Of a stretch of 64,000 nt of DNA, positions 25,019 through 61,227 are shown piece after piece; position 1 is the stretch's first letter; the number at the start of each line of letters is the position of its first letter. Location of the stretch: the NCBI GenBank assembly GCA_022822785.1, contig JAJEAL010000080.1, positions 448 through 64,447 of the forward strand, read 5' to 3'. The notes beneath the pieces are model-generated. The model saw only the letters and a list, made by a program, of their open reading frames with translations, was not told the DNA's origin and ran no database searches. A program made the position numbers and the translations under genes. This DNA is from Candidatus Poribacteria bacterium (GTDB taxonomy: Bacteria; Poribacteria; WGA-4E; PCPOR2b).

Positions 25019-25795
25019 CTACTTCATCGTCGCTGTGCACCTCTCTTTGGGTTTAGGGTAGGTTTCGAGGAAACCGTGTGGGATGCGTAGGAGATACTTC
25101 AGCCAACTTCCCTCCGGTGCATCTTCAAATAAACGCTGGTAAAGTGCATCGCCTCCAAAGGAATTTGCGATCACCCCAGGGCAGTAAGTAAAGATGATTG
25201 TCCGACGCACTTTATCGGTGGTATTCAAGGAGGCATGACGCATATCATGGGTGAACAGCAGGACAGATCCCGCTTTCATCGGGATTTCAACATACATATC
25301 CTTCAACACGTCCTCGGATGGCGACGGGTAATTTGCTTTGTGGCTCCCCGGAATGACCTGTAACCCACCCTCACCAGGGTGGATGTCGCGCATGGCATAA
25401 AACACTTGGAAAAGATTGTGATGGATACGCCCATTAAAGTGATAGAAATTGTGCGTTACCGATGGGGTGTGGTTGGAGTGAGCGACTGTCCTGCCCCCAT
25501 TCCACTTAAACGTCACCCATGTTGACTTGAGTCTGGGACGGTCCACCATCTCATCAATATACGGAAGCACCTTGGGATTCACAACGAGGTCTAATAAGGA
25601 CGGCTCCTGATTCAGAATATCATCGTATCTTACTTCAGGATTCGCTGATTCGGGCAAGGCGCGAAAATCTTGCAGTGCTCGTTTTTCCCAAACATCCAAA
25701 CGTTCGTTCAGATATATGAGATAATCCGGCGCAATGGCATCTTCGATCAGCAGATACCCGTTCACATCGTAATGATACAGTTCTTCGGGTGTCAC
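25019..25795 (-). CDS. PhyH-family dioxygenase paralog lacking an obvious HxD/E motif
   Basis: YHYDVNGYLLIEDAI ... LQVIPGSHKAN ... LLFTHDMRHASLNTTDKVRR. The window where WHxD should lie reads AHSNHTPSVTHNFYHFNGRIHHN. Confidence 0.65.
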   Translation of the reverse strand: MTPEELYHYDVNGYLLIEDAIAPDYLIYLNERLDVWEKRALQDFRALPESANPEVRYDDILNQEPSLLDLVVNPKVLPYIDEMVDRPRLKSTWVTFKWNGGRTVAHSNHTPSVTHNFYHFNGRIHHNLFQVFYAMRDIHPGEGGLQVIPGSHKANYPSPSEDVLKDMYVEIPMKAGSVLLFTHDMRHASLNTTDKVRRTIIFTYCPGVIANSFGGDALYQRLFEDAPEGSWLKYLLRIPHGFLETYPKPKERCTATMK

Positions 25796-36433: not shown

Positions 36434-36443
36434 CAATTACATC

Positions 36444-36647: not shown

Positions 36648-36884
36648 AGAGGCGGATCTGCTTAAATATGGATTCAAGTATCGACACCGGAAATACTTAG
36701 TCCAGTTGACCCTCGGGACGAGATATAAAACACGACGATAAATCCTGACGCCGGAATCATAGTCTATCCTAGAAGGCAGCCCGATCGAAATGTTGCAACG
36801 ATTATTTTTTAGTGGCTCCAGAACAGATTTGCATCGGCCATGAGGGGGCACACATAACATACGCATCCACTGGGTCTATATGTC

Positions 36885-37724: not shown

Positions 37725-37725
37725 G

Positions 37726-39464: not shown

Positions 39465-40727
39465 ATGAATGATAATGTAATTGAATTTGTTGAACAGGAT
39501 GAATTTTCAAATGTCGCTCGTATTAAAGTCATTGGCGTTGGTGGCGGTGGCAGCAACGCTGTCAGGCGCATGATTGAGGCTGAACTGGCGGGTGTGGAAT
39601 TCTACGTGGTCAATACCGATGTGCAGGCGCTAAGAGTGTGTCATAATGCAACCCGAGTACAAATTGGCGAAAATACGACAAACGGGCTTGGTGCCGGGGC
39701 AAACCCGGAGGCGGGACGTAAGGCGGCTGAAGAGAGCAAAGAGAACCTCCGAAGTATTGTCGAAGATGCAGACATGGTGTTTGTTACGGCGGGAATGGGC
39801 GGCGGGACCGGCACAGGTGCGGCTCCTATTATTGCGGGTCTTGCTAAGGAAACCGAGGCGTTGACAATTGGGGTCGTTACCCGTCCTTTTACCTTTGAAG
39901 GAAGACAGCGCGCTACCCAGGCAGAAGCAGGCGTGAATGAGATGCGTGAGAATACGGATTCCGTTATCGTTATTCCGAACCAACGTCTTATGGAGGCAGC
40001 GGATCGGAATCTGCCGATAAAAATGGGGTTCCGGATGGGAGACGAAATCTTACTACACGCTGTCCAGAGCATTTCCGACCTGATCATGGTGCCTGGGGAA
40101 ATTAATCTTGACTTTGCTGATGTCAAGACGATTATGTCTAACGCGGGCGGTGCGTTGATGGGAATTGGTTTAGGAACCGGTGATAATCGTGCCGAAGGGG
40201 CAGCAAAACGTGCTATTCTCTCACCGCTATTGGAAGAAAACTCCATTGAAGGCGCAACAGGAATTATCGTGAATATCACGGGACCAAGCGACATGGCGAT
40301 GCACGAGTTGGAAGATGCCATGGAGGTGATTAGAGAGGCCTCAGATACGGAGCAGGTCATTTTTGGGCTTGCTTATGACGACAGCTTGGAAGATGAACTG
40401 CGCGTGACTGTAATCGCAACAGGATTTGATCCACAATCTCGGACCAGAAGGCAGACCGCAGGTCAGGGTGACATTGTGAATCTGGAAGAATTTTTGGGAC
40501 GTAATTTCCCTGGCATTGACACGCGGAATGTACGTCCTTCGGGAAATTCGACACAAACCACCCGCACTCCCAAACGACAGGATCAAGGTTCATCTGGGAC
40601 GGGCTCAGGTGTGAGGTCGAATCAATCTTCAGGGGAGGTAGTTAAACCTGAAGTTGCACGGGATGATGATGACCTCTGGGATATCCCGGCGTTTTGGCGA
40701 GTTCGCAATCAGAAAAACAGAAAATAG
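39465..40727 (+). CDS. ftsZ: cell division GTPase FtsZ
   Basis: IKVIGVGGGGSNAV ... VTAGMGGGTGTGAAPI ... a C-terminal Ser/Gly/Gln-rich linker and the terminal peptide DDDDLWDIPAFWR. Confidence 0.95.
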   Translation: MNDNVIEFVEQDEFSNVARIKVIGVGGGGSNAVRRMIEAELAGVEFYVVNTDVQALRVCHNATRVQIGENTTNGLGAGANPEAGRKAAEESKENLRSIVEDADMVFVTAGMGGGTGTGAAPIIAGLAKETEALTIGVVTRPFTFEGRQRATQAEAGVNEMRENTDSVIVIPNQRLMEAADRNLPIKMGFRMGDEILLHAVQSISDLIMVPGEINLDFADVKTIMSNAGGALMGIGLGTGDNRAEGAAKRAILSPLLEENSIEGATGIIVNITGPSDMAMHELEDAMEVIREASDTEQVIFGLAYDDSLEDELRVTVIATGFDPQSRTRRQTAGQGDIVNLEEFLGRNFPGIDTRNVRPSGNSTQTTRTPKRQDQGSSGTGSGVRSNQSSGEVVKPEVARDDDDLWDIPAFWRVRNQKNRK

Positions 40728-40749
40728 TTCGGTCTCCACCAAAATTCCT

Positions 40750-45169: not shown

Positions 45170-47122
45170 TCATACCCAAAAACCATAAGTCGACATCCCT
45201 GCTAGAATGCCGACAAGTGTCCAGAGGCTACCCACTGTGAATTCACCGAGGATAAGTCCCAAAAAAAAAGGGGCAACGCGACGATGCAGCCCGATGCCGC
45301 CGTGTCGTAACAGCAGCCACTTGATGAGCCAACTGACAAAAAGGCAACTCCATGTCACCCGCATTCCCCAACTTGTCGAAATTGCAAAACCCGCGGGATG
45401 GAAGGGCCACCACACAAATCGCATGCGAAAGAGCATTAGGAAGCTAGCAATGATAAAACCGCAGGCCATGAAACCACTTTCGGCAACTAATGTGTCTGTC
45501 GGTGTACTTAGCCAACGGTCTAGCCGTCGATACGGCTCGATGCCGAACGCACTCAACGAGGGGCTATAGGCACGAGCTTCCATACCTAGTTGGTATCCAC
45601 GGTCAATCAGTGCCCAAAAGCCGGCGAGTGAGCCGAGGAGAGCAGCGAGCATCAGCGCAAGTATAAAATGCCGCAGATTCATCCGAGTCCGCTCCGCCAT
45701 CTTGAGCCCCTCGAGCTGATGCGGCATCGGGTGGCTGCGATAAGCACGGTTAATGAACCAGAACATCGAAAACATAACCAAGTTCCCGCGTCCCAGCGTT
45801 CGTGTGCCGACGGTTCGTGTGAGAATCTCGTCGGGACCGGAATAGTGCAGGTCATGGACAGGCGTTCCCAACTCTGCTCGCATGCGGGTGATAGCAATGG
45901 AGATAGCATAATAGATGACAAAGAAACTGACAGTGATAGGCACCGTTGCGCCCCCGCGATAACAGAAACAGACAAGGAACACCATCACACCGATTAGTCC
46001 CAACACCGCTGTGCGATACCTCATCGGCTCATTCAAGTCGTCGAGATTCTCCGCTCCCCGGAACGCTTTTCTGATGACCGCTATCAAATGCCTTCGGCTT
46101 GCCCAAAGTGCAATGACAGCAAGTGCGATGTAGCCACCCGATGCTTGTTCTCTCATGTAGGGAAAGTTCGGCAGACTTTGCAAGCCCATTGCGGCACCAG
46201 CAACACGCATCAGCCGCCAGAACCAGAAGAAAAACCAGCACGAAAACGATAGGTCAAGTGGGATGAAAAATCCGAGTCCAATAGCAAATGGGTAGAATGA
46301 GAGTGGGATGCGTCCCATGGCGTTCCACGGGCTATCAGTGAAAAGCTGGAAGCTCTGAATCCGTGTCCGAAGTTCAGGGATGACGGGAAAGATGACGTGC
46401 ACCCCGTTCAGCAGTGCCAACGCTCCTGCAATAGCAAATCCCATCCACATCACCCGGTTCCGAAAGAACGCTTGCCGTTGCGTTTCCGTCATCTGGAGTG
46501 GGAGTTGGATAATCGGGTAGCTAAGTTTCTCATGCTCAATCCACCGCTTACGGACAATGACGTTGACGCAGAACATCCCGAAGACAAGTACAAAGATAAA
46601 CGTTGTCCACCAGAGGACAGGAGATGCCCAACCAATCAACTGCTCAGGGGTATAGAGGTTCACCTCTCCTTCGTAATATCCCCGTGCAACCTTGCTATTG
46701 CTGACCGTCAGCCACTCCGGGAGGTATGGCAAGAATAGTTCGCGCCATTCGTTCTCCGGTGTCGCAAAACGAAAGGCGTGCCCCAACATCGGCACGAGGA
46801 TTTCGAGCATATCGTGCCCCGTGATGCCGGACGCAATAGAGAGCATCAGGTAGATGATAATCAGCTCTCCCTGATTCAATGCAGAACGAGGTGAAAACCA
46901 CTTGACAAACTGATTGACACCGACAATCACAAAAAGGGTGAAAACAACGTTAAAAAACAGGGAGATAGTGACCGGATGACCGGAATACCGAATTACCTCC
47001 ATTTCGATGACCCAATAACAGTTGATTGGGATGAGAACGCAGGCGATGAAAAGGGATTTGACGGTAACACCTTCAACCGGCTGCTGCTCTATTTTTGAGC
47101 GGAGCGAATCTGTTGTTGCCAT
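45170..47122 (-). CDS. large polytopic membrane protein of unknown function (at least 12 predicted TM segments)
   Basis: 650 aa, rich in W/F/L hydrophobic segments throughout. I recognise no catalytic motif. It is adjacent to the PhyH-rich island. Confidence 0.6.
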   Translation of the reverse strand: MATTDSLRSKIEQQPVEGVTVKSLFIACVLIPINCYWVIEMEVIRYSGHPVTISLFFNVVFTLFVIVGVNQFVKWFSPRSALNQGELIIIYLMLSIASGITGHDMLEILVPMLGHAFRFATPENEWRELFLPYLPEWLTVSNSKVARGYYEGEVNLYTPEQLIGWASPVLWWTTFIFVLVFGMFCVNVIVRKRWIEHEKLSYPIIQLPLQMTETQRQAFFRNRVMWMGFAIAGALALLNGVHVIFPVIPELRTRIQSFQLFTDSPWNAMGRIPLSFYPFAIGLGFFIPLDLSFSCWFFFWFWRLMRVAGAAMGLQSLPNFPYMREQASGGYIALAVIALWASRRHLIAVIRKAFRGAENLDDLNEPMRYRTAVLGLIGVMVFLVCFCYRGGATVPITVSFFVIYYAISIAITRMRAELGTPVHDLHYSGPDEILTRTVGTRTLGRGNLVMFSMFWFINRAYRSHPMPHQLEGLKMAERTRMNLRHFILALMLAALLGSLAGFWALIDRGYQLGMEARAYSPSLSAFGIEPYRRLDRWLSTPTDTLVAESGFMACGFIIASFLMLFRMRFVWWPFHPAGFAISTSWGMRVTWSCLFVSWLIKWLLLRHGGIGLHRRVAPFFLGLILGEFTVGSLWTLVGILAGMSTYGFWV

Positions 47123-47194: not shown

Positions 47195-47998
47195 CTACCC
47201 TTTCGTTTCCGAAGCGGTCCAGACACCATTCGGAGCGAGTGCCAACGCCTGCTCAAGATGCACCATTCGCTCCGGTCCCGCCGTTTCTACCATTTTATCC
47301 CCATAGACCTTTCCCTTCCCAAAACCCGACACAAGATCAAGCTCCTTGTGCAGTAAGTCTATCTCATCTTCTTTGTATCGATAGCCACAGTTAATTGTGA
47401 ACATACGCCTTTGGGTCCCGCCGCCCCAAGAGCTATGCTTCAAACCTTGATTAAACACAACAAGGTCCCCTGGCTGCGATTCGAGTGCAACCGCGGGTAC
47501 TGAAGGGCCATCAAGCGCGTAAGTCTCTTCCAAGCTAGAGATGTTCTGTTGTACCGTTTCGGCGTATAGCTCCCCATATCTGTGGCTACCGGGGATAAAA
47601 CGCACTGCCCCGGTATTAGCGGTCAATGGGTCAAGATAAAACGCCATCTTATAGAAACGGATGGGACGGGGCCAACCGCCATCAGAATGCCAACCAGTAT
47701 CCCCACTGTAGAAATTGCCGTCACTCCCCAGATAGGTGTAATCTTCTCCGAGCAGGCTGGCGAAGATGCCATCAATTCGGTCATCGTCGAGAAGCGAACT
47801 GAGGTATTCGCTCTGACCGATAAACGGTACGATGTATGTGCGGTGCGTTTCGGGGTGATCTACGTTCAGGTCAACCCAGACCTGTTCAAATGCTTCAATA
47901 ATCTGATCGATGCAGTCATTGAGAAAACCGGGGAGATGGAGATAGCCGAATGTGTCCATATAACGGAGTTGCTCTGGTGTGAGTCGGAACTTTGACAT
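47195..47998 (-). CDS. PhyH-family Fe(II)/2OG dioxygenase
   Basis: FGYLHLPGFL ... GWHSDGGW ... FIPGSHRYG. The start is chosen at MSKFRLTPEQ; the ORF track runs to 48079. Confidence 0.7.
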   Translation of the reverse strand: MSKFRLTPEQLRYMDTFGYLHLPGFLNDCIDQIIEAFEQVWVDLNVDHPETHRTYIVPFIGQSEYLSSLLDDDRIDGIFASLLGEDYTYLGSDGNFYSGDTGWHSDGGWPRPIRFYKMAFYLDPLTANTGAVRFIPGSHRYGELYAETVQQNISSLEETYALDGPSVPAVALESQPGDLVVFNQGLKHSSWGGGTQRRMFTINCGYRYKEDEIDLLHKELDLVSGFGKGKVYGDKMVETAGPERMVHLEQALALAPNGVWTASETKG

Positions 47999-48038
47999 GA
48001 GATGTCTCCTTTGACTTAAGGTTTGACTTGCTAAAGGA

Positions 48039-49241
48039 TTAGGCGTTATCCCAACTAACGATAAAATCTGCGACCTCAAAATCCACGGGCATGTTGTCAG
48101 AATCGTATGGCGATATGCTCCGTTGAAAACCGGGGTGGTCTTCCGTATCAGAAGTCTTCAGCTTCTTATCAAGTGCACCAAACCGATTCCACAGTCCCTC
48201 TGTTTGTTCAGGAGTGAAGCGAGTTCCGAGGTAGAGGATGTCTCGACCATTCCCCCACAGGGAATTGGGTGAGGTATCCGTGTGTTTGAGCCGATACAAC
48301 GCTCTACTCAATTTTGATAGCATGACGATGCTGACCATCCGGCCGTGTGGTGATGGGTGAAGTTGCTCTAGCCCTGCGTGAAATGCGTCAACGTCTTTGT
48401 TTACGATCGCATGAAAGATCTTTGCAACCAGATCCAGTTCTGTGAAGAAGAGTGTATCCCACGTCTCAAACTGTGTTCTTGCGGGATCTGAAAGATAGTG
48501 ATAGAACCCAGGCTCCCAGTGGCGCCAATGAACGTTGGGGAAAGAGGGGAAGCGAAAAGGACGGTAGCCGGGATGCAGTGTGCGCCGCATCTTGCTGCTG
48601 TAGTAACTTCCCCAGTGTAGCAGAAGGTGGGTGTACACGACTCCGTCGCCGGCGTTAAGTTCGACAGGCATGCCGCCGGGCAGGGGCACTGATGCGTTCT
48701 CACTCAACTGTTGGTTTTCCTCGTTGGTGTTAACGCGCCGGTGACTGCCGGGAACAATCCAAAATACACTGTCGTCGTAGAGGGCGATGTTCCATTGTAG
48801 ATAACTGGGGCCATGGTGCTGCATATTGGAAATCATGCCGCGCAGCGGGGCGGGTTCTCCGGGGCCAATATCTCGGTGCCACGTGGCTGGTCCGGTTTCC
48901 CCGGCGGTCGCGCTGCAGATACAGGCAAGATTGTGTGGAACGACATCTTCTGTATCCATTAGTTGCTGGGCAACCCCCAAGGTATTCTCGTGGAGCAGAA
49001 ACTCAATGGCGTTGGCAGACTCACGATCGCAATCTGCGGCGAATGCCAATCGTGGTTGGCCACTTGCCGCCCATTCGCCCCCCGGCGGCTGATCGGGCGT
49101 ACGCCGCTGCTCGGACAGTTCTTTTTTCCGATTGACCATGTGTTCAATGCTGTTGCGCAGGGGTTGGAGCTGGTCAGGCGGGACCACATTGTGCAAGATA
49201 TTGTAGCCCTCGTCCATAAGCTGTTGCCGGTCGACTTGCAT
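48039..49241 (-). CDS. long PhyH-like dioxygenase paralog (about 400 aa) with a C-terminal extension
   Basis: LMDEGYNILHNVV ... ATWHRDIGP ... WIVPGSHRRVNTNEENQQL ... HWGSYYSSKMRRT. Clear paralog of 56974..58212, including the C-terminal roughly 130 aa. Confidence 0.7.
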   Translation of the reverse strand: MQVDRQQLMDEGYNILHNVVPPDQLQPLRNSIEHMVNRKKELSEQRRTPDQPPGGEWAASGQPRLAFAADCDRESANAIEFLLHENTLGVAQQLMDTEDVVPHNLACICSATAGETGPATWHRDIGPGEPAPLRGMISNMQHHGPSYLQWNIALYDDSVFWIVPGSHRRVNTNEENQQLSENASVPLPGGMPVELNAGDGVVYTHLLLHWGSYYSSKMRRTLHPGYRPFRFPSFPNVHWRHWEPGFYHYLSDPARTQFETWDTLFFTELDLVAKIFHAIVNKDVDAFHAGLEQLHPSPHGRMVSIVMLSKLSRALYRLKHTDTSPNSLWGNGRDILYLGTRFTPEQTEGLWNRFGALDKKLKTSDTEDHPGFQRSISPYDSDNMPVDFEVADFIVSWDNA

Positions 49242-49544: not shown

Positions 49545-50432
49545 TTATTGGTTCAGCTGTGCTTCTGCCCACGCTTGGAGTGGAATATCAGCCGCCTCTG
49601 GTCGCCAATGTCTGGACACCGGATGTACGTGAGCGTCATCTCCTAGGTAATTGCCTTTACCTGTGCCTAATTCTCCGATCAGCTGCCGCTGAATCGGTGT
49701 GCAGCGGGCAATCAGGTCGGGGGCTTGGTGGAGATAATCGGCGGGTCGAATCCAACGATAGTGATAACCGTAATACAAACACTTCCGGGCGTGGTTTGAC
49801 AGATTTGGGGTGAGGCAGTGCCAGAGCGCAGTGCGCCAGAGCATCGCTGTGCCCGGGCGGACGTTCACCTCTACAATCCGGTCGGGATCAATCTCGTAGC
49901 CATCCTGATGTATCAGTGCCGGTGACATCTTATGGCTGCCCCGGACAACACAGATTGCGCCGCTGTTATGCTGCGTCAAATCCGTCAAATAGTAGCCAAC
50001 TTTTACCTCCACAAACGGCACCCGTCCGTTGGTAATAGGATACCCAAAATTCGGTGCGTCCGAATGCCAAGGGAAGAAACTATCCTTTGACCCTAACTTC
50101 TGATTTGCGTATTCGGGCGGACACGGTGGACGCACATCGAGGTGTGATGTGCGGATCTGGATATTGACACCGAGGACATCTACCACGAGCGGCAGCAATG
50201 TTGGGTGGTCGATGAGACGCAGCAATTCGTCATGGTGAGCGAGAGCGTTCCGAATCTGGAACGGTTCGTCCGGTCCAATCTCTTTCTCACTTCGATAGTG
50301 AGCATCTAACTCATCTACCGCTTCAATCAATGTTTCAATCTCTGTGGGACTTAGTGCATCCTCAATTAGAATATACCCATCTTCATCGAATTGCCTGCTT
50401 TGTTCTTCAGTGATAGCAATGGATTTTTCCAT
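49545..50432 (-). CDS. PhyH-family Fe(II)/2OG dioxygenase
   Basis: FDEDGYILIEDAL ... PWHSDAPN ... VVRGSHK. The start is chosen at MEKSIAIT; the ORF track runs to 50522. Confidence 0.7.
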   Translation of the reverse strand: MEKSIAITEEQSRQFDEDGYILIEDALSPTEIETLIEAVDELDAHYRSEKEIGPDEPFQIRNALAHHDELLRLIDHPTLLPLVVDVLGVNIQIRTSHLDVRPPCPPEYANQKLGSKDSFFPWHSDAPNFGYPITNGRVPFVEVKVGYYLTDLTQHNSGAICVVRGSHKMSPALIHQDGYEIDPDRIVEVNVRPGTAMLWRTALWHCLTPNLSNHARKCLYYGYHYRWIRPADYLHQAPDLIARCTPIQRQLIGELGTGKGNYLGDDAHVHPVSRHWRPEAADIPLQAWAEAQLNQ

Positions 50433-50454
50433 CAAAATATCCTCCGGGACGTTG

Positions 50455-51213
50455 TTAACGGTAATCTTCTGCTGCGTCCTGTGGCTCAAAACCAACCACC
50501 TCACGCGCATGTGAAAAGTCACGATAACTCCATCTGTTATTCGACACCGCGAAGAAGATATCGAACTTTACACTATCGGGTGCTTCGACGCACTTTTCGA
50601 CCATCTGTGCGATGTCTCGATGGCTGCACCAGACGGAGAACGTACGTGACTGTGTCGGACGGTTTTCGCGGGTCACTGCGCCGATACGGAGACTGATTAT
50701 TGAGATGTCACAGGTATCCGTAAAATATCTGGCTAACGCCTCACCGAACACCTTGGTGCACCCGTAGAGCCCGTCTGGTCGTGTCAGCGAATTATGGTCT
50801 AGCATATCCCACGTTTCAGGCACTTCATCGTAACGTCCTTCTGCAAGTGCGTTATAGGGAAATTCCCGTTCGCAATTACTGATGGTTGAGCCGCTGCTGG
50901 CGTAGATTACTCGCTTAACACCCGCCTGTCGTGACGCTTCAAACACATTATAGGTCCCAATGATGTTAGGGCTCAAGAGATCTTCCCACGTTGCGCCGCC
51001 TTGTGCGTTTGCTGCAAGATGCACAACCACATCCACCCCCTCAAAGGCAGGTTGTATCGCATTGAGGTCGGCGATATCCGCTTGATGACATTCTATTCCT
51101 TTTACCGGGCGACGATTGAGTGCGCTCAAAGCGTATTTTCCCTCCAAACGCTCCCGCACGATGCCGCCAATCAGTCCGCTCATGCCGGTGATGAGTACTT
51201 TCTTTTGTGCCAT
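50455..51213 (-). CDS. NAD-dependent epimerase/dehydratase family protein (short Rossmann-fold)
   Basis: KKVLITGMSGLIGGIV ... HLAA ... YGCTKVFGE (the YxxxK catalytic motif). 252 aa. Confidence 0.75.
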   Translation of the reverse strand: MAQKKVLITGMSGLIGGIVRERLEGKYALSALNRRPVKGIECHQADIADLNAIQPAFEGVDVVVHLAANAQGGATWEDLLSPNIIGTYNVFEASRQAGVKRVIYASSGSTISNCEREFPYNALAEGRYDEVPETWDMLDHNSLTRPDGLYGCTKVFGEALARYFTDTCDISIISLRIGAVTRENRPTQSRTFSVWCSHRDIAQMVEKCVEAPDSVKFDIFFAVSNNRWSYRDFSHAREVVGFEPQDAAEDYR

Positions 51214-51368: not shown

Positions 51369-51397
51369 TTGACACGACTGCTGTTTTCCTCTATACT
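51369..51397 (+). promoter_or_regulatory. sigma70-type promoter TTGACA-17 bp-TATACT upstream of the ThuA-like gene
   Basis: ttgaca at 51369-51374, an exact 17-nt spacer, tatact at 51392-51397. An imperfect dyad ctgcg ... cgcag follows, then the RBS aggagg 9 nt before the TTG start at 51481. Confidence 0.5.
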
Positions 51398-51480: not shown

Positions 51481-52125
51481 TTGAAAGTTTTAGTCTTATC
51501 GGGCCCAAATCATCGGTTTGAAGATAGTGCGGCTGTTATCAACGATTTCCTCTCCGCGCGAGGCGATATGTCCGTCGAGCTTACTGACGATAAAGGGGTA
51601 TTGGCGTCGTCTCAACTGAACGAGTTTGATGTCTGTGTGTTCGGAACCGGGTTCACCCGTACGGTTAGGCAAGCCGACGGTGCCCCCAAGCGGGAGCCGG
51701 ACCTCACATCTGATCAGGAAGACGGTCTCTTTCAATTTGTCGGTGGAGGGAAGGGATTGGTCGGGATTCACGGAACTGCATGGTGGATCGGTGGACGTGC
51801 TGTTGACCTCATCGGCGGAGCCGCCAACTGGCATCCACCGGGTGATACGTTCACAGTGAATATTGACGACTCAGATCACCCGATTACACAGGGCGTTGAG
51901 GCCTTTGAGGTCGAGGACGAAATCTATATGTCCGCTTATGATCCTTATATCCGCATCCTGGCGTCCGCGGAATGGTCGGAGAAACAACACCCGATGGCGT
52001 GGGTGAAATCCTATGGCGATGGGCGGGTTTTCTACACATCGCTTGGTCACGGTCCCGGCACCTTTGAGCGACCTGCTATGCAGAAAATGCTTGCACAGGG
52101 CGTCCAATGGGCGGCAAACAGTTAA
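51481..52125 (+). CDS. ThuA-like protein (class-I glutamine-amidotransferase-like fold)
   Basis: KVLVLSGPNHRFE ... GKGLVGIHGTAWWIGG ... GRVFYTSLGHGPGTF. 214 aa, TTG start. Confidence 0.65.
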   Translation: MKVLVLSGPNHRFEDSAAVINDFLSARGDMSVELTDDKGVLASSQLNEFDVCVFGTGFTRTVRQADGAPKREPDLTSDQEDGLFQFVGGGKGLVGIHGTAWWIGGRAVDLIGGAANWHPPGDTFTVNIDDSDHPITQGVEAFEVEDEIYMSAYDPYIRILASAEWSEKQHPMAWVKSYGDGRVFYTSLGHGPGTFERPAMQKMLAQGVQWAANS

Positions 52126-52211
52126 GTCTCAAGTGGAGTTGAGCAGGCTGCTTTGGTGGTATCCTGCTCAATCTCTTTAACGCCGTGAATAGAAGGGGAG
52201 GTTAGCATACG

Positions 52212-53003
52212 ATGATCGAAGACGAACGCTATCTATTTGACCTGACAGGCTACCTCGTAATTAAGGAGGTACTCGCCGCTGAGGAGGTTGAGCGTTGTAA
52301 TGCAGCAATCGATCGCCATTTTGATCAAGCGAAAGAGATAGACAGGTCGCTAGCGGGTAATTCAAAAACGTTGTCAGGAACTTCTCGCCGGATAGATTTA
52401 GGTGGGATGCTAGCGTGGGAACGCCCATGGTGCGAACCGTTTCGGCATTTTCTTGTCCATCCGCGAATAAAGCCCTACCTCGACGGGATATTAGGAGAAG
52501 GCTATCGACTCGATCACGGACCGGGGATGATTGCGATGGACACAGGGGCAGAAGGCGGCACATTGCACGGCGGGGGCATTGAGCGTCCTAACTTTTCGGA
52601 AGCCTATTTCTTCAAGGATGGACGTATCTACACCGGGCTCACGGTCGTCGAATATATGCTCGCGGACGAAGGCCCGGGAGATGGTGGATTAGCGGTTATT
52701 CCGGGCAGCCATAAGGCGAACCTCCCTTGTCCGCAAAGTATGAAGCTATGGGAGAAATATCAGCAGCATGTGCTTGAAATCAATGCAGAGGCCGGCGATG
52801 CCGTTATCTTCAGTGAGACCCTGACGCACGGCACTTTGCCATGGAGGGCGAAGCATCAGCGGCGTGCGTTGCTCTATAAATTTAGTCCCGGATTTCAGGC
52901 ATACAGTGCAGGAGCGCATCAAATCACCTATCCTGACTATATTGAGGATATGACGCCGGCGCAGCGTGCAGTCATGGAGGCACCGCACATCCGTCGCCGA
53001 TAG
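52212..53003 (+). CDS. PhyH-family paralog in which the expected HxD/E position reads H-G-G
   Basis: YLFDLTGYLVIKEVL ... GTLHGGGIERPNF ... LTVVEYMLADEGPGDGGLAVIPGSHKAN ... SETLTHGTLPWRAKHQRR. 263 aa. Confidence 0.65.
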   Translation: MIEDERYLFDLTGYLVIKEVLAAEEVERCNAAIDRHFDQAKEIDRSLAGNSKTLSGTSRRIDLGGMLAWERPWCEPFRHFLVHPRIKPYLDGILGEGYRLDHGPGMIAMDTGAEGGTLHGGGIERPNFSEAYFFKDGRIYTGLTVVEYMLADEGPGDGGLAVIPGSHKANLPCPQSMKLWEKYQQHVLEINAEAGDAVIFSETLTHGTLPWRAKHQRRALLYKFSPGFQAYSAGAHQITYPDYIEDMTPAQRAVMEAPHIRRR

Positions 53004-53042: not shown

Positions 53043-54374
53043 ATGAGCAACGTTCCGATGACACGCCCTGAAGAGGCATTGGCGATTCACGAGACGAGAT
53101 ACTTCCACTCGTCTACCTTTACGGAACTGGAAGATGGACGTGTGTTACACGCCGCTGGAACGCAGTTCAATACATCTGACGATGGCGGAATCACATGGTC
53201 AGAGTCGTTCTCGTGTTCTGACACAGAAGGGAATCCGGTGGGTGGCGGCGGAACATCGCTCGTGCGGTTGTCCGGCAGCGGTATTGGCTTGGCAGCCATG
53301 CAAAGACCGTCGGACGATTCTCCAGAGAACGATAGGTGGAACGCGCATCTGGTTTTCTGGCGGTCTGAAGATGGCGGAGAGACGTGGGAACCTCCGGTTC
53401 GCATAACGCCGCCGGGGGTGGGCACCTACGCCTATCAAGATGTCCTGCTTCGCACTGCTTCTGGGCGCATTGTCCTACCGGTGTATATCGCGATAGGGCA
53501 GTCCGCTGGACCGGATGACGTCAAACCGCCAGCATCTGGTAAATTGGTGAATGGTCAGTGGGCCTCCACCGCTGCACACTTCTTTGACCCTCGTTTTTCC
53601 GCTTCTTATGTCTGTTATTCGGACGACGATGGGCGCACGTGGCAGCGCAATCGGGATGGGGAACTGATCATCTTGATGGACTGGAACGCATCGTTCAGCT
53701 ATACCAATGAACCAACGGTCACAGAAGTGAGTCCGGGACGGCTGCTGATGTTCATGCGCAATGGGTTAGGACGAATCTTTCAGGCGTGGTCGGCGGACAA
53801 TGGGGAGACATGGACGCGTCCACAGCCGACTTCTCTCGCTTCGTCCACGGCGCCTGCACAGATTCGGACGCTGCCTAACGGCCATCTCTTGGCGGTCTGG
53901 AATCAGGAGACCGAGGACGAAATTAAACGGGGCTATAACCGGACGCGCGTCTCCGCTGCGATTAGTCGAAATGGTGGCAGCGTGTGGGAGTTCTTCCAAA
54001 ATGTGGAATCGATGCACGAGGAGACGCGGGTCGAGCCGGGACCGATTCGTCCTGTCCGGCCAGCGGAATACAACTTTGATCCGGGACTTCCTGCTCCAGA
54101 GCGTGAGCGTGAACATATCCTCCCCTTCGATTTTCATGGACGGTGGTCGTACCCGTCGGTATTCGTGATGGCAGACCGCGTCCTCATCGCGCATACCTAT
54201 TCGGTCTATGAGGAACACCCGACCCGCGCTGAGTTAATTCTGAGCAGTCAGAAGGAGGGCGGTTTCAATCAGAAGCTGAAGGTGCTGCCTTTGACGTGGT
54301 TCTACGGTGGGAAAGAGCCTGCGGATAACCCTGTGCTGGCGCGAATATACGATCAGGGAAACCCTAATGCGTGA
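53043..54374 (+). CDS. BNR/Asp-box repeat protein (sialidase/neuraminidase-like six-bladed propeller), no signal peptide
   Basis: Asp-box motifs SDDGGITWS, SEDGGETWE, SDDDGRTWQ, SADNGETWT, SRNGGSVWE. 443 aa. Confidence 0.75.
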   Translation: MSNVPMTRPEEALAIHETRYFHSSTFTELEDGRVLHAAGTQFNTSDDGGITWSESFSCSDTEGNPVGGGGTSLVRLSGSGIGLAAMQRPSDDSPENDRWNAHLVFWRSEDGGETWEPPVRITPPGVGTYAYQDVLLRTASGRIVLPVYIAIGQSAGPDDVKPPASGKLVNGQWASTAAHFFDPRFSASYVCYSDDDGRTWQRNRDGELIILMDWNASFSYTNEPTVTEVSPGRLLMFMRNGLGRIFQAWSADNGETWTRPQPTSLASSTAPAQIRTLPNGHLLAVWNQETEDEIKRGYNRTRVSAAISRNGGSVWEFFQNVESMHEETRVEPGPIRPVRPAEYNFDPGLPAPEREREHILPFDFHGRWSYPSVFVMADRVLIAHTYSVYEEHPTRAELILSSQKEGGFNQKLKVLPLTWFYGGKEPADNPVLARIYDQGNPNA

Positions 54375-54421: not shown

Positions 54422-55426
54422 TTGATGTTAAAATTTGCTTATTTGGGGGCATGGCACAGCCACGCGAGTATGCACACCCGCGAGTCAACAGAGCGTCCGG
54501 ACGAGTTCAAACCCATCGGATTCTATGACCCGGATCCAGAGGTTGTTGCGCGGAGAGAGGGGGAGTGGTCCGAATCCTTTCCTGACCTGACCGTTTTTCC
54601 GTCGGTGGAAGCGGTGTTGGACAGCGATGTTCAAGCTGTCATCGTCGAAGGGCATGTGTATCAGAACTTGGACTATGCAGAGCAGGCACTCGAAGCGGGT
54701 AAACATGTGTTGCTCGAAAAACCGGCAGGCGTTAATATAGAGCAGTTACAGCGGGTTCACGAACTCTCGGAACGCAAGGGGCTATGCGTTCAGATGGCGT
54801 ATATGTGGCGTTACAATCCCGCAATCCACGAAATGCTGCGACTTGCAAAATTGGGTGCGTTTGGCGATATTTTCTACTACCGCGGACACATCCCGAAGCC
54901 GATGTCGTGGCATCCACAGTTGGCGCAGGAGTACAAGGTGTATCACGGCGGGATTTACTTCGAGATGGCGGGACATCTGATTGATCTGATGGTTATCCTG
55001 ATGGGAGAGCCAACGGGAGTGCAGCCCTCCTTGGGACGGCACTACGACAGCCGGTCGGAGGTGGATAATGCGGTGGTCGTCCATGAATTTGAGAATGGAC
55101 TTGGTACGATTGACACCGCCGGGATGCACATCGAGAGCGGCAAAACCCGGCGTATCGAGGTCTACGGCACAAAGGGCACCGCTATCCATACGCCAATCGG
55201 TTCGGATAATCTCAGCCTGTTTCTGGGGGAATCTGTTGAAGGCTACGCAGCGAGCTCGCACGATGTAACCATCACTCGGTCGGCAGCCTCTGGATCACTG
55301 TTGCGTGAGCTTGCCTCTTGCATTCGTGGGGAAAAACAGCCAGATTACACGCTGGCACACGATAGGGCTGTGCAACGGACACTGTTCGCCGGTTGTGGCA
55401 TAACGGACGGTATGGCATTGAGATAA
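54422..55426 (+). CDS. Gfo/Idh/MocA family oxidoreductase
   Basis: KFAYLGAWHSHA ... LLEKPAG ... C-terminal alpha/beta domain. 334 aa. Confidence 0.65.
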   Translation: MMLKFAYLGAWHSHASMHTRESTERPDEFKPIGFYDPDPEVVARREGEWSESFPDLTVFPSVEAVLDSDVQAVIVEGHVYQNLDYAEQALEAGKHVLLEKPAGVNIEQLQRVHELSERKGLCVQMAYMWRYNPAIHEMLRLAKLGAFGDIFYYRGHIPKPMSWHPQLAQEYKVYHGGIYFEMAGHLIDLMVILMGEPTGVQPSLGRHYDSRSEVDNAVVVHEFENGLGTIDTAGMHIESGKTRRIEVYGTKGTAIHTPIGSDNLSLFLGESVEGYAASSHDVTITRSAASGSLLRELASCIRGEKQPDYTLAHDRAVQRTLFAGCGITDGMALR

Positions 55427-55489
55427 GCGAAAGTTTTCGGCCAACCTTCCCTCTAACCGAACGAGTCTCGTTTGTCCGGGAAAATTTCT

Positions 55490-56221
55490 ATGAAAAATAG
55501 TGAGAAAACAGATACCCTTGAAATCAAGGCGTTGACATTTGATGTATTCGGCACAGTTGTGGACTGGCGCGGTAGCATTATCCGCGAAGGGGAAGCCTTT
55601 GGGGCAACTCACGGAATTGATGTCGATTGGGCAGAGTTTGCGGATAAGTGGCGGGGAGGATACGGACCCTCAATGAATCGCGTCCGTCAGGGTGAACTGC
55701 CGTGGCTGAACATAGATACCCTGCACCGTATGATCTTGGACGATTTACTTGATGAGTTCGAGATTACAGGTTTGGGTGAGGAAGAGAAAGACCACCTCAA
55801 CCGTGTGTGGCATCGTCTCCTCCCATGGCCCGACGCCGTCAGCGGACTGCAGCGATTGCGCGAGCGGTTTATTATTGCACCCCTTTCTAATGGTAATATC
55901 GCCTTGCTCACCAATATGGCGAAACACGCCGGGCTACCGTGGGACTGCATTCTGTCCTCAGAGTTGGCGAGGCATTACAAACCGGATCCGGAGGTCTACC
56001 AAACCGCCGCGGACTTATTGGGCCTTCCGCCGAATCAAGTGATGATGGTCGCGGCACACCCCGGTGATTTGATCGCGTCGTCGGCTGTTGGATTCAAGAC
56101 CGGATTCGTGCCCCGCCCTGAAGAATACGGGCCGCACCGCAACCGAGATCTGGAACACGATGCCGCTTTCGATGTCATAGCGAAAGACTTTAATGATCTG
56201 GCAAGTCAGCTAGGAGCATAG
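55490..56221 (+). CDS. HAD-superfamily hydrolase of the haloacid dehalogenase type II subfamily (dehalogenase activity not supported)
   Basis: ALTFDVFGTVVDW (single nucleophile Asp), LSNG motif, HYKPDPEVY, AAHPGDL. The corresponding stretch in L-DEX is SSNAWD; here the two Ser and the Asn are not conserved. The start is chosen at MKNSEK. Confidence 0.6.
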   Translation: MKNSEKTDTLEIKALTFDVFGTVVDWRGSIIREGEAFGATHGIDVDWAEFADKWRGGYGPSMNRVRQGELPWLNIDTLHRMILDDLLDEFEITGLGEEEKDHLNRVWHRLLPWPDAVSGLQRLRERFIIAPLSNGNIALLTNMAKHAGLPWDCILSSELARHYKPDPEVYQTAADLLGLPPNQVMMVAAHPGDLIASSAVGFKTGFVPRPEEYGPHRNRDLEHDAAFDVIAKDFNDLASQLGA

Positions 56222-56228
56222 AACAAAG

Positions 56229-56969
56229 ATGTTTGTCGGTGTGGATGGGTGCAGGGCGGGTTGGTTGGCTATCGGACTGGAAGCCACGGGTAACTGGCAG
56301 GTAGATATTTTTTCCAATGTGTCCAGTCTTTGGGATCACCACCGGCAGGCGTCTTTGATACTGATTGATATTCCTATCGGCTTGAAAGCCGGTGGCAAGG
56401 CTGAACGTGGTTGTGACCCGCAAGCCCGGAAGTTGTTGGGGCCGAGACGTTCAAGCGTGTTTCCCGCGCCGTGCCGTGAGGCGATATATGCCTCGTCGTA
56501 TCAGGAAGCCTGCGATATCAATCAACGGTTGACAGACAAACGGTTGTCTGTTGAAAACTGGAATATTATCCCCAAAATCCGTGAGGTGGATTGCCTTCTT
56601 TCGGATGACATCTCCGCGAGATCTAGCATTAGGGAAACCCATCCGGAACTCTGTTTTTGGGGGTTGGCGGATCGGCCGATGCAATACGCCAAAAAGCGGA
56701 GTGAAGGACTGTCGGAACGGACGCAGCTCCTCTGGTCGATTTATCCGGGGACTACTGATATTATTGCCCATGCGTTATCCACTTATAGACGCAAAGATGT
56801 CGCAAGAGACGACATTCTGGATGCGCTGGCCGCTGCGGTGACGGGACTGATGGGAGGACAAAACCTCGTGTCAATTCCCCAGAAACCTGAGTTTGATGAG
56901 CGCGGCTTGCGGATGGAGATGGCGTATTGTTCGCACGCCGTAGTGGAATTATGGGATAGAACTGAATAG
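56229..56969 (+). CDS. DUF429 domain protein
   Basis: MFVGVDGCRAGWLAIGLE ... ILIDIPIGL, the characteristic DUF429 N-terminus. 246 aa. Confidence 0.6.
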   Translation: MFVGVDGCRAGWLAIGLEATGNWQVDIFSNVSSLWDHHRQASLILIDIPIGLKAGGKAERGCDPQARKLLGPRRSSVFPAPCREAIYASSYQEACDINQRLTDKRLSVENWNIIPKIREVDCLLSDDISARSSIRETHPELCFWGLADRPMQYAKKRSEGLSERTQLLWSIYPGTTDIIAHALSTYRRKDVARDDILDALAAAVTGLMGGQNLVSIPQKPEFDERGLRMEMAYCSHAVVELWDRTE

Positions 56970-56973
56970 GCTT

Positions 56974-58212
56974 ATGACGGGAGATACGGGAATGCAATTT
57001 AATCGAGACCAATTCATGGAGGACGGGTATTTGGTATTGCGCGAGGTCATCCCACCGACTGAATTGGAAGATTTGTGCGCTGGTTACGATCGGATGGTAG
57101 ATCGACAACGTGGGATCTGGGCGTGCGAACGCAATCCAGACGATCCACCGGGCGGCGTATGGGAGACGGGTCCACAACCGCGGTTGGCGCTGCATCGGCG
57201 CCCTTTGCTAGACCTTATTGATAGGGAGACAGCGAACACAGCGGAAATCTGGCTGCACGAAAACACGCAGGGCGTTAGTACTCAGTTGATGGGAGAGCCG
57301 GATGCAGCCGTTACCGAAATGATGTTGATGTGCAGTCCGGTACGCGACCGGGGTCCTGCTGCTTGGCACCGCGACATCCATCCGATTGATACCGCCCCGC
57401 TACAGGCGTATATAGATGACATCATAGAAAACGGGCCGAGATATGTTCAGTGGAACATTCCGCTCTACGATGACAGTGTGTTGTGGGTGGTGCCCGGCAG
57501 CCACCTACGCATCAACACCGAAGAGGAGAACCGTCAGTTGTTGGCGGATCCGCACGTCCCCTTGCCCGGCGGCGTCCAAACGCATCTCAAGGGTGGTGAT
57601 GGTGTGGTCTACATCACCCCCATCCTCCATTGGGGCAGCAACTACAGCGCGAAGCTGCGGCGCACCATTCACGGCGGTTTCTGCAACTTCACGAAATATG
57701 AAGATTTGAGTTATACGAAAAATCTATCCGCTGAAGCCCAAGCCACACTGCAACGGTGGGACAAACGGAGTGAGCAGATGCAGGGTCGTACTGAGTCGGC
57801 ATTGCGAGCTGTTATTGAAAAAGATGGTTCCGCCTACCACGCTTCGCTAGACGCGATACATCCGGGCAGAGGTGAAAAGGGCAAAATGCTAACCACTATT
57901 TTTCTGTGTAAGGCGGCGTTTTTCATTAATCTCCGACGGAATCCGGGGGTTGAAGACGGTCCAGAAGACCTGCGTAAGCGCGGGACGAGCGCTCACCCAA
58001 CGACGCTGAACTGGGGACCTGAGTTCGCAGATCGTTTCACACCGCAGGAGGCAGAGACGTTATGGGACCGGTTTAAGCCGCTCGATGCCAAACTTCAAAG
58101 GGATGAGGAACATTTTTTCCCCGGCTTCCAATCGGGGCCGATGCGGTACTGTTTCAATGAAACACCCTCCGATTTCGGGGTAAAGGAATTCATCGGGATT
58201 TGGGAGAATTGA
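56974..58212 (+). CDS. long PhyH-like dioxygenase paralog (about 410 aa) with a C-terminal extension
   Basis: FMEDGYLVLREVI ... AWHRDIHP ... WVVPGSHLRINTEEENRQL ... HWGSNYSAKLRRT. Paralog of 48039..49241. Confidence 0.7.
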   Translation: MTGDTGMQFNRDQFMEDGYLVLREVIPPTELEDLCAGYDRMVDRQRGIWACERNPDDPPGGVWETGPQPRLALHRRPLLDLIDRETANTAEIWLHENTQGVSTQLMGEPDAAVTEMMLMCSPVRDRGPAAWHRDIHPIDTAPLQAYIDDIIENGPRYVQWNIPLYDDSVLWVVPGSHLRINTEEENRQLLADPHVPLPGGVQTHLKGGDGVVYITPILHWGSNYSAKLRRTIHGGFCNFTKYEDLSYTKNLSAEAQATLQRWDKRSEQMQGRTESALRAVIEKDGSAYHASLDAIHPGRGEKGKMLTTIFLCKAAFFINLRRNPGVEDGPEDLRKRGTSAHPTTLNWGPEFADRFTPQEAETLWDRFKPLDAKLQRDEEHFFPGFQSGPMRYCFNETPSDFGVKEFIGIWEN

Positions 58213-58267: not shown

Positions 58268-59110
58268 ATGATCGTTGATGTGCACAGCCATTGTCTTCAA
58301 CCCGAGCACATGAGCGAAGCTAATCATCGCGCTAACGAGCGAGCGGGTTATCCGCCGATGCCACCGTTGTCGCCCGAAACGTACCTGAAAGCGATGGAGG
58401 TCGTTGACAAAGCGATTGTTTTCGGGGTGCGGGGCGTTTCTGCCGGAATGTACAGCCCGAACAATTTCACCGCTGAATGGGTCAAACACGCGCCGGACAA
58501 GCTGATCGGTTTCGCGGCGATAGATCCGACCGAGGAGGACCATCTAGAAGAGGTTGATCGGTGTGTGTCGGACTTGGGATTGCAGGGGATCAAACTCTAT
58601 CCCATGCTAGGGCGATACGATCCCACTGATCCCACCGTCGCCTTTCCCTTGTACGAAAAGGCGCAGCGGATGGGATTGCCGATCTTGTCGCACATGGGAA
58701 CGCATCCGGCCCCTCGGGCGATGCTCAAATACAGTTTGCCGATACTGATTGACGAAGTTGCCCAAGCGTTTCCAGACCTCAAGTTTATCATGGCGCATAT
58801 GGCACACCCGTGGCAGCGAGATTGTGCGGTTGTCTTGCGCAAGCACCCAAATGTCTACGCGGATGTCTCCGGTGGCGGGTGGGTCCGTCAGTGGCAAGGC
58901 TGGGAGGGGTTGATTGGCATGGTTGAGTGGGGTGTGACAGACAAACTCCTTTTTGGCTCGGATTTCCCGCTATGGACGCCGCAGGAGGGCATGGATGGGC
59001 TGCGCCGGCTGAACGACCAGCTCGAAGGTACGAAACTGCCGCGTATTCCGGAAGATGTGATTGAAGGGATTATCCACCGGGATTCGCTCGCGCTTCTGGG
59101 GTTGGAGTGA
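58268..59110 (+). CDS. amidohydrolase-2 family (PF04909-like) metal-dependent hydrolase
   Basis: MIVDVHSHCL ... IKLYP ... FIMAHMAHPW ... GSDFPLW. 280 aa. Confidence 0.7.
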   Translation: MIVDVHSHCLQPEHMSEANHRANERAGYPPMPPLSPETYLKAMEVVDKAIVFGVRGVSAGMYSPNNFTAEWVKHAPDKLIGFAAIDPTEEDHLEEVDRCVSDLGLQGIKLYPMLGRYDPTDPTVAFPLYEKAQRMGLPILSHMGTHPAPRAMLKYSLPILIDEVAQAFPDLKFIMAHMAHPWQRDCAVVLRKHPNVYADVSGGGWVRQWQGWEGLIGMVEWGVTDKLLFGSDFPLWTPQEGMDGLRRLNDQLEGTKLPRIPEDVIEGIIHRDSLALLGLE

Positions 59111-59341: not shown

Positions 59342-60118
59342 ATGCTTGATGTTGAGCTTATCGATCCCACTGAAGTTGAAAGAGCAGCGGCTATCTTCCA
59401 TCGAGATGGGTTTGTTCCCATCAGAGACGCGCTCAATCCCGAACAGCTTGCGTACGCCCAATCGGGTGCAGCCCGTGTCATTGCCCAGCAGATGAGGGAT
59501 ATTCCACTGGAGGAGGCAAACCGAGGATATGCCCGTTACTCTTTTGGTTCCCAGATCCATCACCCGGAATGGGTTCAGCTTATCGATTTACCGACGGTTT
59601 TACCGATAATAGATGCGATTTGGGGGAGTTCCGATTACATCTGTTCCGGCGGCGGTGGCGATTACTCGACGCCCGGCGCGCGGGAACAACAGCTCCACGC
59701 CGATATCAGAGATGTTTTCAACGATCCACTGAATCTAGTGACAATCCACGATGTGCCAACGCCGTATATCGTTGTGAATTTTCTTATGGTTGAATTCAAA
59801 AAGATTAACGGTGCCATTCGATTTGTGCCGGGGACCCATCGGACGCGTCAACCTGTGCCGGCGATAGACGAGGAGCCTGACCGTATGAAGGAATCGATTA
59901 TCTGTGCACCCGCCGGAACGGCGCTCATCCGGGATGTGCGTTGCTGGCACGGGGGCACCGCCAATAACTCGGCTGAGATTCGACCGATGACCAGTGTCGG
60001 TTACCTCGCGCCATGGTTTCGTTTGTCCGGTCTGGGACCATCACTTCCACGTGCGCTCTATGATACGCTGTCCGCCCGCGGTAAGGAGCTCACTCGGTTT
60101 ATCGTTCAGCCCGATTAA
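59342..60118 (+). CDS. PhyH-family Fe(II)/2OG dioxygenase
   Basis: FHRDGFVPIRDAL ... QQLHADIRD ... FVPGTHRT ... CWHGGTANNSAEIR. 258 aa. Confidence 0.7.
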   Translation: MLDVELIDPTEVERAAAIFHRDGFVPIRDALNPEQLAYAQSGAARVIAQQMRDIPLEEANRGYARYSFGSQIHHPEWVQLIDLPTVLPIIDAIWGSSDYICSGGGGDYSTPGAREQQLHADIRDVFNDPLNLVTIHDVPTPYIVVNFLMVEFKKINGAIRFVPGTHRTRQPVPAIDEEPDRMKESIICAPAGTALIRDVRCWHGGTANNSAEIRPMTSVGYLAPWFRLSGLGPSLPRALYDTLSARGKELTRFIVQPD

Positions 60119-60177: not shown

Positions 60178-61227
60178 ATGAACGCTTTCGATCTGCGTGA
60201 ATTATCCGATGCCTCTGAAGTTTATCTCTGCCACGATGAGGGCTACTTTCCTGTCCTCATCAATCCACAAGATGAAGAAATTCTCGCTGTCCTGCGGGGC
60301 GGGGCCGGACATGTGGGGATAACCGGATGGCTGGATGCGGTGCGTTCACTAGATGGCGGCAAAACGTGGGGGCCGCCGACTGTTATTGTGGATACCGAGG
60401 TGGATGACCGCAATCCCGCAGTTGGGCACGCTCTTGATGGGACGGTCGTGGTTGCTTACCACGCTCAAGGGTCTTACAACAAGGATGGGAGTTGGGGGCA
60501 CAACTTGCGCCGTGTGCAAATGCGGCTCACGTGCTCGCACGATGGCGGTGTAACATGGGAACCATCTCAACCGCTCAACTACAAACCGATGGAAAAATGC
60601 TCTGCCTATGGTCGAATCTGTACCTTGACCGATGGAACGATGCTCCTGCCGATTTATGGGAGCGTTATCGGAACGTCGGAGCAGACAAATGATCATGCCT
60701 ACATTCTACGCTCATATGACAACGGGCAAACGTGGGGAGAACCCACTCTGATCGCTGCGGGTTACAACGAAACAGGGTTACTTCTCCTACCCAACGGTGA
60801 TTTGGTGGCTGCAATGCGCTCCGGTGATCAACGTGCCCTGCTGTCGGTGTCCCGTTCCACGGATGGAGGAACGACATGGACCGAACCTATTCCTGTCACC
60901 AATGACCGCGAACACCCTGCTGACTTGACGCTGCTTTCCAACGGCTGGATTCTCCTATTCTTTGGTGTGCGGCATGAGCCATTTGGGGTGAGTGCGCTCG
61001 TCAGTAAGGATAACGGACAAACTTGGGATGAACGGCGGTTGATTGTCTGTGACGATTTAGGCGACAATGATTTGGGTTATCCTTCTACGGTGAAGCTAGG
61101 TGATCGCCTCGTGACAGCATACTACTGCGCGCCGCGACAGTGGAATGCGCCGGATTTTCGTGGCGAGGGCACTTTCGCGCGAGCATTGCTCTACAGCGAA
61201 AGTGTGTTGTTGGCGGCAATTGTGTGA
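60178..61227 (+). CDS. BNR/Asp-box repeat sialidase-like propeller protein, no signal peptide
   Basis: Asp-boxes SLDGGKTWG, SHDGGVTWE, SYDNGQTWG, STDGGTTWT, SKDNGQTWD. 349 aa. Confidence 0.75.
   Translation: MNAFDLRELSDASEVYLCHDEGYFPVLINPQDEEILAVLRGGAGHVGITGWLDAVRSLDGGKTWGPPTVIVDTEVDDRNPAVGHALDGTVVVAYHAQGSYNKDGSWGHNLRRVQMRLTCSHDGGVTWEPSQPLNYKPMEKCSAYGRICTLTDGTMLLPIYGSVIGTSEQTNDHAYILRSYDNGQTWGEPTLIAAGYNETGLLLLPNGDLVAAMRSGDQRALLSVSRSTDGGTTWTEPIPVTNDREHPADLTLLSNGWILLFFGVRHEPFGVSALVSKDNGQTWDERRLIVCDDLGDNDLGYPSTVKLGDRLVTAYYCAPRQWNAPDFRGEGTFARALLYSESVLLAAIV

Follow-up and report, generated by a model that had tools for sequence, protein, structure and literature searches.

The open reading frame (ORF) at 52212..53003, on the forward strand of the 64-kb window (the whole stretch of DNA that was analyzed, which comes from Candidatus Poribacteria), probably encodes a catalytically competent Fe(II)/2-oxoglutarate (2OG)-dependent oxygenase of the PhyH family. 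Its iron site appears, by alignment, to be built in the fashion of HygX, the Fe/2OG oxygenase of Streptomyces hygroscopicus that forms the orthoester of hygromycin B (PDB 4XC9, 4XCA, 4XCB, and 4ZPI). The iron would be held by two histidines, H119 and H206, and the carboxylate would be supplied by E202, four residues ahead of H206, rather than by the position two residues after H119 (+2), where Gly121 is found. R217 would anchor 2-oxoglutarate, and the glycine at +2 would probably leave room by the iron in which a bulky polar substrate could fit. Such an enzyme, having a complete triad, would carry out oxygen transfer or other oxidative chemistry, namely, hydroxylation or a HygX-like C-H abstraction on a glycoside, and not halogenation. 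We infer the binding of iron by E202 from homology to HygX at ~21% identity, and the class of substrate is suggested by the genomic context.

The target gene and its product

The ORF is intact, and its start methionine is the same one used by its orthologs. The comparison with Pfam PF05721 (PhyH) that a first-pass annotation of this DNA had proposed gave a match over the full profile (positions 1-213 of 213, 53.8 bits against a cutoff of 22, E=4e-14). An AlphaFold2 (AF2) model of the product was confident (pLDDT 90.4, pTM 0.89), and all of the best 50 Foldseek matches to this model in the PDB were PhyH-type 2OG oxygenases (E <= 2e-12); together, the model and the Foldseek search support a double-stranded beta-helix fold. 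An inverted repeat (TTGAGCAGG / CCTGCTCAA, 52139-52171) with a 9-bp stem and a 15-nt loop sits between the stop codon of the upstream ThuA-like gene and the ribosome-binding site of the target; TCTCTTT comes next, and the arrangement is not that of a classical terminator. Features of the target and its surroundings are listed in Table 1.

The first-pass annotation had pointed to an HxG where the iron-binding HxD/E of this family is expected, 48 residues before the PGSH block, and to an intact distal HGT...R block, and we could confirm all of these readings. Translation of 52560-52583 gives TLHGGGIE, in which H119 is the sole histidine in the 60 residues preceding PGSH; it lies 45 residues ahead of P164 and 48 ahead of H167. 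The distal block reads E202-T-L-T-H206-G-T...R217-R218. R217 stands ~10 residues after the distal histidine, as does the 2OG-binding arginine of the PhyH family, and we take it to bind the C5 carboxylate of 2OG from what is generally known of 2OG oxygenases. A canonical HxD/E...H triad with its carboxylate at +2 is not what the protein has, the residues there being H119-G-G121.

Table 1. Coordinates of the target gene, its predicted metal-site residues, and neighboring features in the window
Feature	Position	Strand	Basis or remark
Promoter-like site TTGACA-17-TATACT (11/12), upstream of ThuA	51369..51397	+	Consensus match only; such sites not above chance in the region
ThuA-like gene, directly upstream of target	51481..52125	+	PF06283, E=1e-39
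GGAGG ribosome-binding site, ~10 nt 5' of target ATG	52197..52201	+	Sequence read
Target ORF, 263 aa; PhyH-family Fe(II)/2-oxoglutarate oxygenase with HygX-type metal site (predicted)	52212..53003	+	ORF, Pfam, AF2, Foldseek
H119-G120-G121: proximal iron-binding His (predicted), Gly at canonical Asp/Glu (+2) position	52566..52574	+	Translation, HygX alignment
E147: invariant acidic residue, subfamily-specific, same strand as V145, two positions on	52650..52652	+	Conservation, strand alignment
P164-G-S-H-K168 block, common to HygX (GSHKANFP)	52701..52715	+	Alignments
E202-T-L-T-H206: relocated carboxylate (E-x3-H) and distal iron-binding His (predicted)	52815..52829	+	Translation, HygX alignment
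R217-R218: predicted 2-oxoglutarate C5 carboxylate binder, last core strand	52860..52865	+	Conservation, HygX alignment
BNR_2	53043-54374	+	Pfam
Gfo/Idh/MocA	54422-55426	+	Pfam
HAD	55472-56221	+	Pfam
DUF429	56229-56969	+	Pfam
PhyH	56974-58212	+	Pfam
Amidohydro_2	58268-59110	+	Pfam
PhyH	59342-60118	+	Pfam
BNR_2	60178-61227	+	Pfam
PhyH genes of the window	15648-16364, 25019-25795, 25890-26678, 47195-48079, 48039-49241, 49545-50522, 52212-53003, 56974-58212, 59342-60118		

Relationship of the target to HygX

HygX was the best solved sequence relative of the target (phmmer, E=3e-8). A profile of the target family searched against the PDB returned HygX at E=1.6e-14, with EctD next at 2.7e-5, and direct profile alignment of the target with HygX by hhalign gave a probability of 98.1% (E=6.9e-14). 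At the level of structure, chains of HygX made up the top 8 Foldseek matches (E down to 2e-16, TM ~0.7, ~21% identity). The profile and hhalign alignments paired the motifs of the two proteins as LHGG with LHGG, PGSHKANLP with GSHKANFP, SETLTHGT with NEALMHGT, and R217 with an arginine; by our own count, the LHGG motif of HygX is H102-G-G104. A 2026 review describes the HygX triad as H-X-G...E-X3-H, in which the acidic residue has been relocated and a glycine occupies its old position (PMC13374393).

Conservation of the metal-site residues

A word-indexed search yielded 1062 homologs of the target at E<=1e-5, and when the representatives of 50%-identity clusters were searched exhaustively, 2379 clusters were recovered at E<=1e-3, 193 of them at E<=1e-30. 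We assessed conservation in a close set, made up of the 120 closest homologs (56-93% identity to the target), and in a distant set of 150 cluster representatives more than 50% different from one another. In the close set, H119, E147, D152, E153, H167, K168, and R218 were present in 120/120 sequences, and E202, H206, and R217 in 119/120 each; G121 was found in 118/120, and E124 (+5) was E or D in 118/120. In the distant set, the +2 residue was G in 111 representatives, S in 10, and A in 7, with a few other residues or gaps in the rest, and Glu remained dominant at the position of E202. HxG and ExxxH occurred together in 76 of the 150 distant representatives, and 11 further ones combined S, A, or P at +2 with ExxxH; most of those remaining were fragments in which one of the motifs is missing. 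No D or E was found at +2 from the proximal histidine in any of the 270 relatives (120 close and 150 distant). The conservation in close and distant homologs indicates that the H-G-G site of the target is old and has been selected for, rather than being a lesion, a sequencing quirk, or the product of chance.

The first-pass annotation had left room for an alignment to place an Asp or Glu at +2, for example, the Glu of AEGG. None was placed there, and the alignments point to a carboxylate elsewhere, at E202. The Glu of AEGG (E114) was rejected as a ligand; it lies 5 residues before H119 and varies among E, A, G, and D. In an alignment of the paralogs within the window, E124 fell under the canonical Asp, by way of a 3-residue register shift that left H119 unpaired. 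We rejected this register as an artifact, since the HygX and family-profile alignments pair histidine with histidine and E124 is unconserved in the wider clade.

Coupling of the +2 and -4 positions

We compared 218 PhyH ORFs of the window and 80 related genomic loci with respect to the residue at +2 from the proximal histidine and that at -4 from the distal histidine. An HxD/E motif went with a non-acidic residue at -4 in 135 ORFs, and Hx[G/A/S] went with Glu or Asp at -4 in 79 (these being mostly orthologs of the target and so not independent). The mixed combinations, Hx[G/A/S] with a non-acidic -4 residue and HxD/E with Glu or Asp at -4, were each seen once. Thus, among the 218 PhyH ORFs, the HxD/E and relocated-carboxylate designs were nearly exclusive, and the same rule held across the 150 diverse representatives. 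In the seven canonical paralogs of the window, the -4 residue was T, H, T, N, S, V, or Q. Moreover, a fragment of HygX scored 45-50 bits against the clade of the target and <=18 bits against the canonical paralogs of the window, and these scores would fit a relocated carboxylate that arose only once and is common to HygX and the target clade.

The coupling provides a rule for sorting PhyH paralogs, in which a G at +2 is paired with an E at -4. It also means that HxG alone is no proof of a halogenase and that position -4 from the distal histidine needs to be checked for a relocated carboxylate.

Other readings of the H-G-G site

The alternative that fares best keeps the protein as an active oxygenase and assigns the carboxylate ligand to E124 (+5) or to E147 on the neighboring strand, or lets an atom of the substrate complete the coordination sphere. 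The high conservation of both residues in the close set speaks for it (E124 as E or D in 118/120, E147 in 120/120), as does the Glu that HygX too has at +5 (LHGGNSE), and V145, which stands in the target where HygX has Lys137, leaves space near the iron. Neither E124 nor E147 is conserved in the wider HxG clade, however (P/E/D/T at the former position and S/A/E/T at the latter, with E153 also variable), whereas E202 is conserved there, and the ligand of HygX is given as the glutamate of E-x3-H (PMC13374393). We therefore regard these other ligands as unlikely. E147 is a candidate second-sphere or substrate-binding residue, and E124, E147, and E153 may bind a cationic or polyhydroxylated substrate; with lower probability, one of the three could take part in metal binding.

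The first-pass annotation had likened the site to those of the Fe(II)/2OG halogenases SyrB2, WelO5, and BesD, in which case Gly121 would free the iron site for chloride or bromide. This comparison was not supported, and we consider a halogenase very improbable. The HxG motif is indeed present and conserved, sponge tissue, the habitat of the host, is rich in halides, and the curated NCBIfam model of chlorinating enzymes, TIGR01762, gave a faint, partial match (E=0.13). What marks a halogenase, however, is the lack of any protein carboxylate, which leaves the iron site free for the halide, and not the mere presence of Gly or Ala; E202, found in 119/120 close homologs and homologous to the metal-site Glu of HygX, would occupy that site, and because E202 would restore a His2-Glu triad, no iron site would be left for a halide. 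In SyrB2, the -4 position is occupied by Ser231, which lines the chloride pocket, and a Glu there would presumably be incompatible with halide. The TIGR01762 match amounted to 11.5 bits against a cutoff of 226.3, SyrB2 came 18th (E=0.31) when the PDB was searched with the family profile, and no halogenase was among the best 50 Foldseek matches. A 45-aa fragment searched against the PDB for a residue-level alignment with SyrB2 returned no matches. Lastly, no carrier protein, nonribosomal peptide synthetase, or polyketide synthase was seen in the same-strand cluster of the window or in the related loci examined.

A degenerate, noncatalytic paralog that has lost its iron would explain the missing +2 carboxylate, and redundancy is plausible given the very many PhyH copies in Poribacteria (PMC3909097), but this is the least probable reading of all: the protein retains ~75% identity across Poribacteria, Latescibacterota, and Gemmatimonadota, no fewer than 119 of the 120 close homologs keep each of H119, E202, H206, R217, and the PGSHK block, the pLDDT of 90.4 marks the model as confident, HygX is active in vitro with the same motif (PMC13374393), and real degeneration looks otherwise, as in the N-terminal halves of the two-domain proteins P0140 and P0146, which have lost both histidines. 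The first-pass annotation had spoken of a noncatalytic or unusual paralog; unusual is apt, in view of the HygX-type site, and noncatalytic is at odds with strict conservation over three phyla. The preferred reading remains an active oxygenase with E202 as the predicted ligand.

Gene neighborhood, distribution, and candidate substrate

From the ThuA-like gene through the target to the second BNR_2 gene (ending at 61227), the genes run on the same strand with short gaps, and the promoter-like site upstream of ThuA is a possible start of this cluster. The ThuA neighbor was also found on metagenome contigs that encode an identical target protein. The nearest genomic matches to the target came from Candidatus Poribacteria metagenome-assembled genomes, at <=95% identity, and relatives are encoded in at least 574 species-level genomes, with Poribacteria, Latescibacterota, and Gemmatimonadota as the main groups. 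The gene order around the target is kept in ~10 close Poribacteria genomes. Most other Poribacteria have a tight cluster made up of a Gfo/Idh/MocA dehydrogenase (GFO), the target ortholog, a second GFO, two PhyH genes (both WHRD), and a sulfatase gene. The context is conserved within Poribacteria only; the neighborhoods in Latescibacterota are unrelated, and we found no coherent functional signal in them, the genes there including an ABC-F protein and restriction-modification genes.

Because conservation of the context is confined to Poribacteria, it is a weak guide to the substrate. A carbohydrate-like substrate is our tentative guess, based on the recurrence of sugar-type dehydrogenase and hydrolase partners and on the fact that HygX acts on a glycoside.

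A sulfatase-family protein (cluster c2, 37 loci; for example, L018 9420-10874) accompanies the target orthologs in most Poribacteria and starts MNLAYIVIDTLRYDH. Read by itself, this sequence appears to have Thr where the Cys/Ser that sulfatases convert to formylglycine is expected, and the protein may therefore not be a classical sulfatase.

PhyH paralogs and other features of the window

When all ORFs of the window were searched with an iterated HMM, exactly nine PhyH paralogs were recovered, scattered over the 64 kb among housekeeping genes. Poribacteria are known for an exceptional expansion of this family, at >1.9% of genes (PMC3909097), and nine copies in a 64-kb window fit that expansion. 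The first-pass annotation had counted an HxD motif in seven of the nine, 35-48 residues before PGSH. The count of seven was correct (WHSD, WHRD, WHRD, WHQD, WHPD, LHAD, and WHSD); the distance to P/RG(S/T)H that we measured was 31-44 residues, which agrees roughly with the earlier figure when counted to the histidine.

The two paralogs of the window that are without HxD are the target and the product of 25019..25795(-), its closest in-window relative (E=7e-23). The family of the latter (~106 proteins) has a conserved H106-S-N-H109 ... H183-D184-x-x-H187 ... R197 pattern, with His at -4, the equivalent of E202, and then Asp at -3. This pattern suggests another noncanonical metal site, possibly one with three histidines or one with the carboxylate moved to -3.

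Two-domain PhyH proteins of ~510 aa that are distant relatives of the target (P0140, P0146, and P0122) occur outside the window, and a similar two-PhyH gene, of 490 aa, lies at L004 11786-13258. In P0140 and P0146, the sequences in the N-terminal domain at the lost histidines read LAGGGEP and LLQGMRPW. The C-terminal domain of these two proteins combines HxG or HxS with Ser or Gly at -4 (FMGSAQIHG, FLAGAQTHG), and neither position offers a carboxylate. By these motifs, P0140 and P0146 are better candidates for halogenase-like enzymes than the target.

Elsewhere in the window, the PhyH ORFs at 47195-48079 and 48039-49241 overlap by 41 nt, and this pair (47195-49241) adjoins a gene for a 650-aa DUF6785 and DUF6784 protein at 45170-47122 on the minus strand (E=3e-172). 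A division and cell-wall cluster at 34780-40727, encoding a Mur ligase, an FtsQ-type POTRA protein, and FtsZ, confirms an ordinary chromosomal setting; it is followed by a radical SAM protein at 40654-42480. The GC content drops to 0.40-0.43, from ~0.50, in patches at 12001-14000, 22001-24000, and 36001-38000. An ORF of 530 aa in the patch at 22-24 kb encodes a DNA methylase domain (N6_N4_Mtase) and was possibly acquired horizontally.

Meaning of the clade

The HygX-type relocated-carboxylate variant was already known, and the target is an additional member of the HygX-like clade; what results for PhyH paralogs is a sorting rule and not a new principle. In the literature searched, this type of metal site had been reported for one antibiotic enzyme, and here it is common to a large environmental clade, which is part of the well-known and functionally unexplained PhyH expansion of sponge symbionts. 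Within the HxG/ExxxH clade, the biochemical evidence comes from HygX.

A bolder proposal, which we offer as speculation and think unlikely to be right as a whole, is that the H-x-G...E-x3-H site marks a large, strongly conserved environmental PhyH clade and is not a one-off antibiotic adaptation and that the clade performs HygX-like C-H abstraction at or beside the glycosidic carbon in the oxidative breakdown of marine or sponge glycans. Hydroxylation at C1, for example, would yield a lactone and a free aglycone. The proposal draws on the catabolic operons, with their Gfo/Idh/MocA dehydrogenases, BNR proteins, sulfatases, and amidohydrolases. If true, oxidative glycoside cleavage would have a soluble counterpart that does not depend on copper.

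Comparison with known systems

The target resembles HygX in its PhyH-type double-stranded beta-helix, its H-G-G, E-x3-H-G-T, and GSHKAN(L/F)P motifs, its 2OG-binding arginine, and an N-terminal YxFDxxG(Y/F)LV common to both. HygX converts hygromycin C to hygromycin B in vitro, and its Lys137 has been proposed to fill the space left by the glycine and to tune the iron (PMC13374393). Unlike HygX, the target has V145 at the position of Lys137, and no Lys was found there in the 270 relatives, so the second coordination sphere of the target is predicted to differ from that of HygX. After its HGG loop, HygX also carries an insert of 9 residues that the target is without. The two come from different settings: HygX belongs to an actinomycete aminoglycoside biosynthetic cluster, and the target comes from a sponge symbiont, in which it lies in a cluster that looks catabolic. 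No orthosomycin or aminoglycoside biosynthetic context was found around the target (ThuA/BNR/GFO/HAD/PhyH) or its relatives (GFO/PhyH/sulfatase).

Within HygX's structural subgroup are the orthosomycin oxygenases AviO1, EvdO1, and EvdO2. AviO1 (4XAA) matched the target profile weakly (E=5.5e-3), far below HygX, and the triad variation has been ascribed to HygX only (PMC13374393).

The halogenases of the SyrB2/CytC3 type (TIGR01762), WelO5, and BesD share with the target a +2 position at which Gly or Ala replaces the carboxylate, and SyrB2, a weak match at E=0.31, belongs with the target to the wider PhyH-like group. They differ in that the halogenases have no substitute carboxylate, whereas the target has the conserved E202, and in their carrier-protein or biosynthetic context, which is absent at the target.

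A Poribacteria PhyH enzyme has been shown to demethylate 2'-O-methyl nucleosides (PMC12709175); it has a canonical WHQD motif and is of another type than the target. The canonical PhyH enzymes include PHYH, EctD, PhnY, the PHYHD1-type demethylases, and the seven HxD paralogs of the window. The target shares with them PF05721, the fold, the distal histidine, the arginine, and the PGSH block, but they combine HxD/E with a non-acidic residue at -4, and in the target this arrangement is reversed.
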